Positions 1,039 to 24,949 of a stretch of DNA of 32,000 nt are shown here, in pieces. The notes beneath the pieces were generated by a model, which had not been told where the DNA came from, ran no database searches, and was given only the letters and a program-made list of their open reading frames with translations. The translations under genes and the position numbers were made by a program. How positions within the stretch are numbered: position 1 is the first letter of the stretch; every line of letters begins with the position of its first letter. Source of the stretch: an uncultured archaeon (GTDB lineage: Archaea; Asgardarchaeota; Thorarchaeia; Thorarchaeales; Thorarchaeaceae); contig CAYHAA010000003.1 in NCBI GenBank assembly GCA_964354495.1, positions 179,754 to 211,753 of the forward strand, given 5' to 3'.

Positions 1039-1159
1039 ATGAGTGATTTGCTCGGAGATGATGATTCTCTCATAAACATTTTGACAGCCTGTAAAGATGG
1101 TTCTCCAAATTCATCTAAACAACTAGATGATGATGGAAGAATACAAAATGAGAAGACGA

Positions 1160-1177
1160 GAGGCAACCTTCTGCCTC
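1160..1177 (-). terminator. Hairpin GAGGCA/TGCCTC followed by a pyrimidine-rich tract downstream of the micropeptide pair
   Basis: Minus strand GAGGCA-GAAGGT-TGCCTC-TCGTCTTCTCATTTT, directly at the second sORF stop. Confidence 0.55.
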
Positions 1178-1265
1178 AGCGCCTGTAGATGTAAGCATGA
1201 ATCAGAGCGTCAGTCGAGATGATCGTGCCAGAGGACTTTCTCTGGGGTGTCTTAGCGAGTGCCAT
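1176..1265 (-). CDS. Micropeptide B, 29 aa MALAKTPQRKSSGTIISTDALIHAYIYRR (not in ORF track)
   Basis: ATG preceded by GGAGG SD (inside the RR codons of micropeptide A); paralogous to A, with synonymous changes at conserved residues. Confidence 0.75.
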   Translation of the reverse strand: MALAKTPQRKSSGTIISTDALIHAYIYRR

Positions 1266-1271
1266 GATGCT

Positions 1272-1376
1272 TTACCTCCGGTACTGGTAGGCGTAGGTGA
1301 TTGCCTCGGTCGAGTAGATTCGACCAGTCATGTTCTTGAGCGCAGATGTGTTCCGGTTGTTAGTTGTTAGAGCCAT
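1272..1376 (-). CDS. Micropeptide A, 34 aa MALTTNNRNTSALKNMTGRIYSTEAITYAYQYRR (not in ORF track)
   Basis: TATA box about 33 nt upstream; C-terminal 17 aa are 10/17 identical to micropeptide B. Confidence 0.75.
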   Translation of the reverse strand: MALTTNNRNTSALKNMTGRIYSTEAITYAYQYRR

Positions 1377-1408
1377 AATAGTTCACAGGAAATACTGTGT
1401 AGAGTCAG

Positions 1409-1422
1409 TATATATAGCGAAG
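1409..1422 (-). promoter_or_regulatory. TATA box (TATATATA) of the micropeptide operon
   Basis: Minus strand CTTCGCTATATATACTG, 33 nt upstream of ATG 1376. Confidence 0.6.
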
Positions 1423-1503
1423 CCACCTGCGAGGGACACAAGATGAAGTCACAAGATGTGACTAGTCAGAGGGGGTCGTGAGGTCAATCAGAATCATTCT
1501 TGG

Positions 1504-1923
1504 TCATTGAATGTGCAAGCGTGTCCTGCAATGTGGACAGAGATAGACATCTTTTTCGACTGGAACTGCATTTCCGATGTCGAAGTCCATTCCACAACTG
1601 CTGCAGTGTAACATACCACTTAGAGAGCCACTCTCCACAGGAAGTGCATGTTTCCTCATTGATGCTAGTATTCTATCGTCCTCTGAGATGTTGGTTGGGG
1701 CAATTGAACGACCCTGAGCCCATCTGAATGTGGCATAGAGCAAAAATACGACAATTGGAACATACATGAAGGTGTAGAGGAAGATCAGGTCAAGTGGTGT
1801 ACTGACAATGACACCATAGATTCCGAGGACACCAAGTACGAGAACAACTGCGAAGATGAGCCATCTTCCTGTGTGCTGAGATGTATCTCGCGGATAGGGG
1901 TCATATGAGTCGTCATTCATCAT
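1504..1923 (-). CDS. Membrane protein with two N-terminal TM helices and a C-terminal zinc ribbon
   Basis: Two hydrophobic segments, then CSSC...CPHC. Confidence 0.75.
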   Translation of the reverse strand: MMNDDSYDPYPRDTSQHTGRWLIFAVVLVLGVLGIYGVIVSTPLDLIFLYTFMYVPIVVFLLYATFRWAQGRSIAPTNISEDDRILASMRKHALPVESGSLSGMLHCSSCGMDFDIGNAVPVEKDVYLCPHCRTRLHIQ

Positions 1924-2008
1924 AGTAAAGAGACTCTACTGGTGAGTGATATGTAAAGCCTTCCATATTCTCTTATTTGACTAGTGTAGTACGTGACTCG
2001 ATACTTCA

Positions 2009-3526
2009 TCACATACTTCGTCTGCGATATGCTGTGGCAAGTGCCAGAACTACAAATCCAATCGTTCCACCAACTACTAGACTCGATTGTATCAGGGATA
2101 TTTCATTGCCAGAAACAGTCTGGACACATATGATGAAGGAACTATGGTAACCGGGATCACAAGGACATCCCTCTACGGAATATCCTGCGAGATATGCCTG
2201 CCCGCCTTCGCCTACTGCAATGGCATTAGTGGTTTCGCGGTACACACTTCCATAGAGATTGGAGAAGACCACAGCACCGGCTGTATTCATGCGAATAATA
2301 AAACAATCATCTAGTCCAGAGTATGGGTTAGTTGGGTTTTGGATGAAGTCGTTAGAAGTGGTTCTACCCGTGATGTATATGTAATCATGGGAATCAATTG
2401 AGAAGGCTCCAGCGCTATCAAAACCGGAGCCTCCCATCTCCTCTGTATACTCTAAACTATCGAGGTCGTCATTGAGTCTGTAAATCGCAAACGACCAAGC
2501 AGTATGTGAGTTGTCTAGAACATATATGTAGTATTCAGAGTCGACAACTATCGAAACACTCGGGAAGAAGCCGTTAGTTTTGAAAGCCCCAGAATCGAGG
2601 AGTGTACCATTGGCTGATATCTTCAGGACAAAACAGTGCCCACCATAGTCAATACCTGGATAGTAGTATTCGTCGGTAGGACAAATAGATGTAATTCCAG
2701 CGACATAGATAGTACCATTATCAGTGTAGAAGAGATCTGATCCCGAATCAGTATACTGAGCACCATAGAACGAGGCATAGACTATCTCCGTACCAGTTGG
2801 ATTCATCTTCAGAACATAACAATCAGTATCACCGTTATACGTATCATCGAATGCGTCTACAATCGGGACCTCAGAGGTTCTTGTGCTACCAGCCAGATAC
2901 GCATAGCCTTGTTCGTCAACTGCGAGTGCTTGAAAATCAGCACCGTTTGGTTTGTCTATGAATTCAGGCCCAAAGAAGGTCGAATAGACTAGTGTCTGCC
3001 CATCAGGAGCGAACTTAGTCAGAAAGTACTGTGATGACTCGTTGAAGTAGTCACTATATGGATTGACCAACGGAAAATCCTCTGAGTAAGTAGAACCCAG
3101 AATATAGATGCAGCCTAAGTCATCGACACAAATTGAACTGGGATAGTCAACATCATTTCCTCCCAAGAACGAAGAATACAGAATGGATCCATCAGTTGCA
3201 TTCATCTTCATCACGAAGCAGTCGTGAGTACCACCAAGAGTGTTGTCAATCCCATCTACGATAGGAAATGAGGTGGAACTTGTGGTTCCTGTCACATAGA
3301 GATAACCCTGCGAGTCAATAGAAATGTCCCTCAACGATCCGATAGTGGAACTATTGAGAATCGGAGTGCAATCATTGAATGATGCAAGTTGAGCAGCATC
3401 ACCCTCTATTTCCCGGGCGTTCTCTGGAGATATTGCGGGAGCTGTAGAGATTGTTAGAAATGACGCCAAAAGAAGCACTACTGAAAGAGAGAATCCGAGT
3501 CTGACTAAACCATTACGACCCGACAC
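2009..3526 (-). CDS. Cell-surface SBBP-repeat beta-propeller protein with signal peptide and C-terminal membrane anchor
   Basis: Repeated I-x-x-D-x-x-G-Y-x-Y-x-x-G-x-T-x-S-x-x-F-P units; N-terminal hydrophobic signal; C-terminal TM followed by YRRR. Confidence 0.85.
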   Translation of the reverse strand: MSGRNGLVRLGFSLSVVLLLASFLTISTAPAISPENAREIEGDAAQLASFNDCTPILNSSTIGSLRDISIDSQGYLYVTGTTSSTSFPIVDGIDNTLGGTHDCFVMKMNATDGSILYSSFLGGNDVDYPSSICVDDLGCIYILGSTYSEDFPLVNPYSDYFNESSQYFLTKFAPDGQTLVYSTFFGPEFIDKPNGADFQALAVDEQGYAYLAGSTRTSEVPIVDAFDDTYNGDTDCYVLKMNPTGTEIVYASFYGAQYTDSGSDLFYTDNGTIYVAGITSICPTDEYYYPGIDYGGHCFVLKISANGTLLDSGAFKTNGFFPSVSIVVDSEYYIYVLDNSHTAWSFAIYRLNDDLDSLEYTEEMGGSGFDSAGAFSIDSHDYIYITGRTTSNDFIQNPTNPYSGLDDCFIIRMNTAGAVVFSNLYGSVYRETTNAIAVGEGGQAYLAGYSVEGCPCDPGYHSSFIICVQTVSGNEISLIQSSLVVGGTIGFVVLALATAYRRRSM

Positions 3527-24362: not shown

Positions 24363-24471
24363 TGGCGGGCTCGGCGGGATTTGAACCCGCGGCCCTTTCC
24401 CGAGTCAAGAGAAGAACCTCTTGCTCATCAGGTTAAAAGCCTGCTGCGCTACCTATCTGCGCCACGAGCCC
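24363..24471 (-). tRNA. tRNA-Lys(TTT) with a 30-32 nt intron at a non-canonical site near 43/44-44/45 (within 24396-24427); encoded CCA
   Basis: Acceptor GGGCTCG/CGAGCCC, D-stem GCGC/GCGC, loop CT-TTT-AA, T-arm GCGGG-TTCAAAT-CCCGC; the insert forms a hairpin after the anticodon stem. Confidence 0.9.
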
Positions 24472-24842: not shown

Positions 24843-24949
24843 GCCCCTGTAGTGTAGTCCGGCCTAGCATTTAAGACTGTCAATCCGAGCGGATTGACGC
24901 TTGAAGCAGACCTCTTGAGACCCGGGTTCGAATCCCGGCGGGGGCGCCA
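24843..24949 (+). tRNA. tRNA-Asp(GTC) with a canonical 37/38 intron (24883-24911, 29 nt); encoded CCA
   Basis: Acceptor GCCCCTG/CGGGGGC, anticodon stem TAAGA/TCTTG, BHB helix CTGT/GCAG with bulges CA|A and AC|C, T-arm CCGGG-TTCGAAT-CCCGG. Confidence 0.95.

Follow-up and report, generated by a model that had tools for sequence, protein, structure and literature searches.

Two very short genes, A and B, lie in tandem on the minus strand of the window, by which we mean the whole 32,000-nucleotide stretch of Thorarchaeaceae DNA that was analysed (Table 1). The initial annotation had described a pair of paralogous open reading frames (ORFs) at this place, and such a pair was indeed found. The 10 identities between A and B within their final 17 residues were reproduced from the sequence, and direct reading of the codons confirmed that six of these ten identical residues are encoded differently in the two genes (GGT/GGC, ACC/ACT, GCA/GCT, GCC/GCT, CGG/AGG and AGG/CGC). 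Both peptides end in Y-R-R and lack Trp, and their GRAVY values are −0.79 (A) and −0.20 (B). Note that an in-frame stop codon, TGA in the case of A, stands two codons upstream of each ATG, so that both start codons are unambiguous. When compared with the 46-member family profile described below, A and B matched with E-values of 4e-14 and 1e-11, respectively. B was 93% identical to its orthologue in a congeneric genome (G012), and the changes within the motif were synonymous only. The neighbours of A-B in the window are genes for a Zn-ribbon membrane protein, an SBBP beta-propeller protein, EF-1alpha and tRNA-Ser; neither a maturase nor a dedicated exporter is encoded beside this copy, which is a stand-alone unit.

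Table 1. Features of the A-B locus, in window coordinates.
Feature	Position	Strand	Description
tRNA-Ser(GCT)	894-1038	minus	two introns; 137 nt downstream of B, same strand
Terminator-like element	1135..1177	minus	hairpin GAGGCA/TGCCTC (1177-1160), then T-rich run to ~1135
Gene B	1176..1265	minus	29 aa, net charge +4, pI 10.4; paralogue of A; ends Y-I-Y-R-R
Ribosome-binding site GGAGGT for B	1274..1279	minus	across the final two Arg codons and the stop codon of A
Gene A	1272..1376	minus	34 aa, net charge +4, pI 10.2; ends ST-E-A-I-T-Y-A-Y-Q-Y-R-R
TATA box TATATATA	1409..1416	minus	32 nt upstream of the ATG of A; invariant in four aligned promoters
Second CATCTTGTG copy	~1434-1448	minus	adjoins the palindrome
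Palindrome GTCACA-N3-TGTGAC	1448..1462	minus	perfect; ~32 nt upstream of the TATA box; candidate transcription-factor site

Expression signals and neighbours of the micro-operon

The TATA box, the ribosome-binding (SD) site for B and the terminator that had been annotated are all present at the micro-operon. Given the usual archaeal spacing between TATA box and transcription start, the 5′ untranslated region should be about 10 nt or less. The GGAGGT element lies 8 nt before the ATG of B, and the gap between the stop codon of A and that ATG is 6 nt (CGG AGG TAA, 6 nt, ATG). Because the ribosome-binding core sits in the last codons of the upstream gene, the arrangement as read from the DNA points to coupled, roughly equimolar synthesis of A and B. 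On the other side of B, the hairpin begins inside the TGA of B and has a predicted energy of −15.7 kcal/mol; across seven loci of the A-B operon type, two of its seven stem pairs stay paired through changes on both sides. A and B would be made from one short transcript with its own TATA box and upstream palindrome. A scan for sigma-70 promoters and intrinsic terminators was set aside, since these bacterial models are not applicable to an archaeon.

The hairpin is followed by the tRNA-Ser gene. Its first intron (32 nt, 987-1018) lies in the D-loop and carries a perfect inverted repeat, and its second intron (28 nt) is at the canonical position 38/39. In the raw sequence, this gene was missed by ARAGORN and by Rfam at the gathering score; when intron 1 was removed, ARAGORN called tRNA-Ser(gct) with a 28-nt intron. 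Furthermore, the contig of a relative is without 28 letters at window position 941, within intron 2. The inverted repeat at ~995-1020 was also considered as a terminator, and was rejected because it lies inside the tRNA-Ser intron and is the hairpin of that intron. As a separate observation, the tRNA-Ser segment (~894-1124) is inverted relative to the orthologous locus, being convergent with the micro-operon in G012 (L007) and in a public contig (run X1; joint 894/1124), and this may be a real inversion or an assembly difference. Elsewhere in the window, two further tRNA genes of ~105 nt (24366-24471, minus strand; 24843-24946, plus strand) were detected by Rfam and missed by ARAGORN at default settings, which fits intron-containing genes. 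Its intron-containing tRNAs and an EF-1alpha of archaeal type mark the window as archaeal DNA.

The A and B peptides of the window were absent from a collection of 15 billion proteins. In an oligo-dT RNA library from a soil sample, one 151-nt contig of depth 2 and 88% identity covers gene A (1263-1373), and pieces of EF-1alpha are also present among the contigs of the same library. This contig could be taken as at most a weak hint of transcription of gene A in a relative; note that the word shares between the compared sequencing runs and this organism were 0.20 or lower in all cases.

A micro-protein family of the Thorarchaeaceae

The relatives of this archaeon conserve the motif shared by A and B, as profile searches across the Asgard archaea demonstrated (cut-off for genome presence, E 0.01). 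All 24 genomes of the genus contained 4-13 matching open frames of 28-42 aa each, and matches were found in 79 of the 85 genomes of the same GTDB family, Thorarchaeaceae, in all 16 genera. In an even draw of the phylum, the family profile matched 59/65 genomes of that GTDB family and 0/185 genomes from 26 other Asgard families. In the genome from which the window derives, relaxed patterns and profiles detected eight family members, which are distributed over five loci (contigs C1, C3 with the window, C9, C16 and C17). Beside the orthologous regulator gene in another genome (G075; L078 1183-1293), we observed a divergent peptide that starts with MALAK and ends in EVYRTSF[LV]R instead of AYxYR, and the same branch occurs as the second ORF after A in L008. 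Since the profile misses this branch, the absences counted by profile are partly due to divergence, and at least one apparent absence (G075) is a more divergent member.

We also searched for the family in protein and structure collections. Among 1.84 billion representative proteins, the profile retrieved only 52 sequences, nearly all of them stand-alone proteins of 29-36 aa, and those that were looked up are unnamed. Scans of A, B, C (the third gene of the usual operon, see below) and B-C read-through forms against Pfam, NCBIfam, PHROGs and PADLOC returned no family. Profiles of PDB sequences gave only non-significant matches, to the basic tails of ribosomal uS11, eS1 and eL8 (E 0.14-4.6), and the top score in the ESM Atlas (0.80) was within the range reached by shuffled sequences. 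When a 14-residue motif profile was run against all six-frame ORFs of the genome in search of larger proteins with a mimicked tail, only the eight family members were recovered. Two repeat proteins that matched the profile (P0003 and P0036) are encoded on contigs that are very large and have few genes (70 Mb and 355 kb); they were judged probably eukaryotic and unrelated. A and B belong to a new micro-protein family, found neither in family libraries nor in literature searches.

The conserved element differs from the one first proposed. The initial annotation had stressed a conserved terminal YRR, and this was not borne out, as the endings vary within the family (YR, YRR, YNR, YSR, YKEV and FRR); what is conserved is the core ST-x-A-[ILV]-x-x-[AS]-[YF]-x-[YF]-R, which is found in ORFs of 28-37 aa with a basic N-terminal half. 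Within this core, Ala never varies, and conservation is ~95% for each of Thr, the last Tyr and Arg. The N-terminus is often MALAK or MALxT. The variable, basic N-terminus that had been proposed was, on the other hand, confirmed; the N-terminal half is rich in Lys and Arg and is the least conserved part, with dN/dS of 0.3-0.8 as compared with 0.05-0.2 in the last 13-14 codons, which make up the motif.

The selection on protein that had been suggested from the codon differences between A and B is supported by this dN/dS pattern and by the variability of codon positions across the family. Specifically, in 45 distinct family sequences, the mean pairwise difference over the 13 motif codons was 0.33, 0.17 and 0.53 at codon positions 1, 2 and 3, respectively, and even the codon of the invariant Ala differs in its third base in about two thirds of the pairs. 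Because third codon positions vary most, selection acts on the protein of the sense frame. When all six frames of the 3.3 Mb genome were scanned for AYxYRR followed by a stop, five matches were obtained, every one of them a small ORF with the extended motif; the similarity between A and B lies well beyond chance. On these sequence comparisons, A and B are real protein-coding genes under purifying selection, and the real microprotein family envisaged at the outset is upheld. That the true feature would instead be a long antisense ORF or a non-coding RNA has practically no probability: an antisense frame is open across A and B (window 1197..1370, plus strand, 57 aa) and across the three-gene operon A-B-C at the C17 locus (111 aa), but it is excluded because its first codon positions would be the most variable ones, namely the third positions of the sense frame, while the start and stop codons, the promoter, the terminator and the ribosome-binding sites are all consistent with genes on the minus strand and Rfam has no match at A-B.

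A conserved C-terminal helix, as had been proposed, is supported by modelling and by the placement of the conserved residues on one face of the predicted helix. In a helical-wheel plot, a single 160-degree arc contains the conserved positions (A, I/L, A/S, Y, Y and R), and the variable positions, namely the acidic one, the one following Ile, Y/H and the x that separates the two tyrosines, are on the other side. The conservation moment was 0.26 at 100 degrees, as compared with 0.04-0.07 at the strand periodicities of 160-180 degrees. AlphaFold2, run with 46 sequences, predicted helices at residues 3-20 and 23-31, with pLDDT of ~80 in the C-terminal third and 70 overall. The family peptides are hydrophilic (GRAVY ~−0.7 overall; means of −0.72 for A and −0.78 for B). 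When A and B were joined via the in-frame TAA, AlphaFold2 predicted no confident packing between them (pLDDT 67, pTM 0.31). Note that this tether is artificial; the TAA was translated with NCBI table 6, and no claim of read-through is made.

Operon types and candidate operators

The two-gene operon that had been proposed holds for the window, where A and B form such a unit, but it is not the basic form, as the usual operon of the family has three cistrons, A-B-C. In this usual unit, A is 33-37 aa long and basic (mean net charge +4.9), B is 27-30 aa long, very basic (+5.9) and typically starts with MALAK, and C is 35-43 aa long and acidic (−2.1). C always ends in [ED]-[VI]-L-x-[WLM]-[ED]-A-T and bears in this way its own conserved C-terminal helix motif. 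The A-to-B junction reads xGG AGG TAA, 6 nt, ATG in 19 of 34 cases, the remaining gaps being mostly 5-8 nt, and the B-to-C junction reads TAC AGG TAG, 6 nt, ATG in 18 of 27. Both junctions have a ribosome-binding core at the end of the preceding gene, which again speaks for coupled, nearly equimolar synthesis. No ORF corresponding to C was found anywhere in the window. The window belongs instead to an A-B(-B′) subtype that is present in several genomes and in which the final gene ends Y-R-R-TGA and runs straight into the hairpin; it is a derived, younger A-B copy without C. The terminal genes of this subtype encode their Arg-Arg by AGG CGC. Since no further gene follows for which these codons could be needed, selection for the two terminal Arg residues acts on the protein itself.

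Programmed read-through of the TAG between B and C was considered and rejected, since the distance that a ribosome-binding site needs from its start codon accounts for the fixed 6-nt gap and other junctions are out of frame. Several public gene calls print B and C as one protein with Q at the TAG; a search for recoding at this junction yielded no positive evidence, and we regard the fusion as a gene-calling artefact, B and C often being in frame.

The loci of the family within one genome have differing neighbours. At the most widespread locus (C16 type), a winged-helix regulator gene is divergent from A-B-C, a convergent SAM methyltransferase gene follows, and profilin-like genes are nearby; this arrangement is syntenic across at least five genera. 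Specifically, tandem ORFs of 155 and 124 aa (L002 6032-6948) adjoin the regulator gene that is divergent from the ancestral A-B-C operon of C16. From their sequences, both may be read as profilin-like, and this profilin-like/regulator neighbourhood is kept across several genera. A second locus lies between a superoxide reductase gene and a gene for a Zn-ribbon membrane protein. It has ~150 nt of near-identical promoter and gene A in common with the window, whereas B differs. In addition, a fifth, more divergent family locus was observed on C9 (82166-82273, minus strand; L055 3164-3268) behind the same palindrome and TATA promoter. It encodes a 34-aa A-like peptide ending in AYAFLSSLR, followed by unrelated micro-ORFs of 44 and 39 aa, and a divergent gene encodes a 167-aa protein with no Pfam match at E ≤0.001.

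The palindrome upstream of A is nearly invariant in the four aligned promoters, which come from the window, its G012 orthologue and C17-type loci. Only four GTCACA-N3-TGTGAC sites are present in the genome, all of them in promoter position: at the window, at the C17 locus, at the fifth family locus on C9 and before a gene on C4 that encodes a repeat-rich protein of 413 aa. At the C16 and C1 loci, another palindrome, GGTTTGT-N3-ACAAACC, adjoins the TATA box. Because the operator palindromes differ, the paralogous modules seem to answer to different factors, and the operons would probably be switched on under different conditions. As for the site on C4 (C4:55832; L054 ~1833-3163), the palindrome and a TATA box stand 5′ of the 413-aa gene, whose product reads as bactofilin-like by its sequence and which is directly downstream of a 137-aa winged-helix (HTH_45) gene. 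Judging from the shared site, the C4 gene and the three micro-operons may form a small regulon.

Possible functions and known systems

We tentatively favour the reading that A and B are co-translated cytoplasmic micro-proteins which act as binding subunits and dock via the face of their C-terminal helix. The working surface would be one face of this amphipathic helix, formed by Ala, Ile/Leu, Ala/Ser, Tyr, Tyr and Arg, in which a small-xxx-small packing pattern is flanked by aromatic residues and Arg and which would dock against a helix or groove of the partner. Electrostatic affinity might be added by the N-terminal half, which is variable and rich in Lys and Arg. The likeliest partners would be the peptides themselves, A with B, the acidic C peptide in operons that include it, and a further cellular macromolecule. 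A model that requires a complex of A, B and C would be incomplete, because the window copy is without C.

We consider it unlikely that the peptides bind RNA, DNA or the ribosome, with the Lys/Arg-rich N-terminal half and the Tyr/Arg helix contacting nucleic acid in the way of peptides with an arginine-rich motif or of ribosomal proteins with basic tails. Contacts to RNA are typically made by Tyr and Arg, the family has pI values of ~10.3-10.5 and net charges of +3 to +10, and ribosomal basic tails were the only sequence matches in the PDB. Those matches, however, were non-significant and reflect composition, the basic half is the least conserved part of the peptides, and 4-13 divergent copies per genome would be unusual for a component of the ribosome.

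Quite improbable in our view is a Thorarchaeota-specific peptide regulatory circuit in which A, B and C, being complementary in charge, would assemble through their conserved C-terminal helices and would be sensed by, or act on, dedicated winged-helix regulators. The regulators concerned would be the one encoded divergently from the ancestral operon and whichever factor recognises the GTCACA-N3-TGTGAC palindromes. If this were true, Asgard archaea would possess small-protein switches without counterpart in bacteria or eukaryotes.

We give little credence to export of the peptides as leaderless, bacteriocin-like multi-peptide toxins or as cell-to-cell signals. Tandem paralogous cationic peptides of 28-36 aa without leader, in several diversified copies per genome, would suit such a role, and an ABC-2 type transporter gene lies 2.5 kb from the C16-type operon with its divergent winged-helix regulator gene. 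On the other hand, transporter and immunity genes are absent from the window, C1 and C17 loci, the loci of the family are chromosomal and keep their synteny from one genus to another, in contrast to accessory islands, and the hydrophilic peptides do not have the hydrophobic, Trp-rich amphipathic character of leaderless bacteriocins. Nor does the acidic C peptide make a toxin-antidote set at all probable. In such a set, free basic A and B would be harmful and C would neutralise them, as the opposite charges, the strictly coupled co-expression of A, B and C and the many copies per genome might suggest; however, in the window-type operon, which has no C, A and B are still under purifying selection, the loci are stable and syntenic instead of mobile, and PADLOC gave no match.

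The peptides could also be precursors of a modified peptide or cofactor, with the Tyr-x-Tyr-Arg end as the modified core and a maturase encoded elsewhere, in the manner of prochlorosins, PQQ or mycofactocin. The conserved aromatic C-terminal core, the variable remainder and the many scattered copies are what such precursors would display, yet this reading looks unlikely and ranks lower again. The absence of modifying enzymes nearby, remarked on in the initial annotation, extended to all four loci of this genome that were examined, around which no radical-SAM/SPASM, YcaO, lanthionine (LanM), P450 or RRE/PqqD gene was found. Across the family, the acidic position may be D, E, Q, K, R or N and the i+4 position Y, H, F or R; since the acidic and the first aromatic positions vary in this way, a PQQ-type Glu-Tyr cross-link is excluded. 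Furthermore, the distance from the motif to the C-terminus varies, and the pattern of conservation fits a helix face and not a few reactive residues. Least probable among the roles considered for the peptides, and hardly credible, is cis-acting ribosome arrest that controls downstream translation: in length, the peptides correspond to the exit tunnel of the ribosome, most of the conservation falls within the final 13 codons, and the stop codon of each gene overlaps with the ribosome-binding site of the next one, but arrays of such peptides alone would have no output, and nothing downstream would be regulated at the window, because the terminator hairpin directly follows B.

Among the known prokaryotes, Asgard archaea are the nearest relatives of eukaryotes, and to our knowledge their small proteome is essentially uncharted. 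Almost all Thorarchaeota genomes that were searched retain the present family, yet it has no match to a known family, so that conserved and probably abundant components of these cells escape standard gene calling. Peptides of ~30 residues are open to chemical synthesis, which suits organisms not yet grown. For now, the finding is a well-characterised lead and not a new mechanism.

Four known systems bear comparison with A and B. PqqA has a Glu-x-x-x-Tyr motif and MftA a C-terminal Val-Tyr; both resemble the present peptides in that the ORF is very short and the C-terminal end of its product is aromatic and conserved, and the motif of the genus reads E/D-A-I-T-Y. However, the Glu and Tyr positions are not conserved in the A/B family, and no radical-SAM or PqqD-like gene is adjacent. 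Proteasome activators carry the HbYX motif, and PAN ends in Leu-Tyr-Arg; similarly, hydrophobic-Tyr-Arg forms the very C-terminus of those B-type members that precede a C gene. In contrast, A-type members and the B of the window end in Tyr-Arg-Arg, where Tyr is not penultimate, other genera have YNR, YSR, YKEV or FRR, and the conserved unit is a longer helix face and not the last three residues. An HbYX-type docking tail for the proteasome was rejected, as the penultimate Tyr is missing in both window peptides.

Leaderless peptide operons such as aureocin A70 (aurABCD) and enterocin L50A/B, as well as class IIb two-peptide bacteriocins, in which helices pack through small-xxx-small patterns, share with A and B the tandem, translationally coupled arrangement of cationic leaderless paralogues of ~30 aa and the A-x-x-x-A/S in the helix. 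They differ in that A and B are hydrophilic, have an archaeal host and are syntenic, core-like genes with no transporter or immunity gene at the window. Lastly, small ORFs encode binding subunits in other archaea, namely sP26 of Methanosarcina mazei, which acts with glutamine synthetase, and the haloarchaeal zinc-finger micro-proteins. Compared with these, the A/B family is multi-copy, forms coupled sets of two or three cistrons, has no Cys/zinc site and has no sequence relationship to them; it resembles them in being made up of cytoplasmic proteins of <50 aa that are missed by annotation, belong to one lineage, have their own promoter and carry a short conserved interaction segment.
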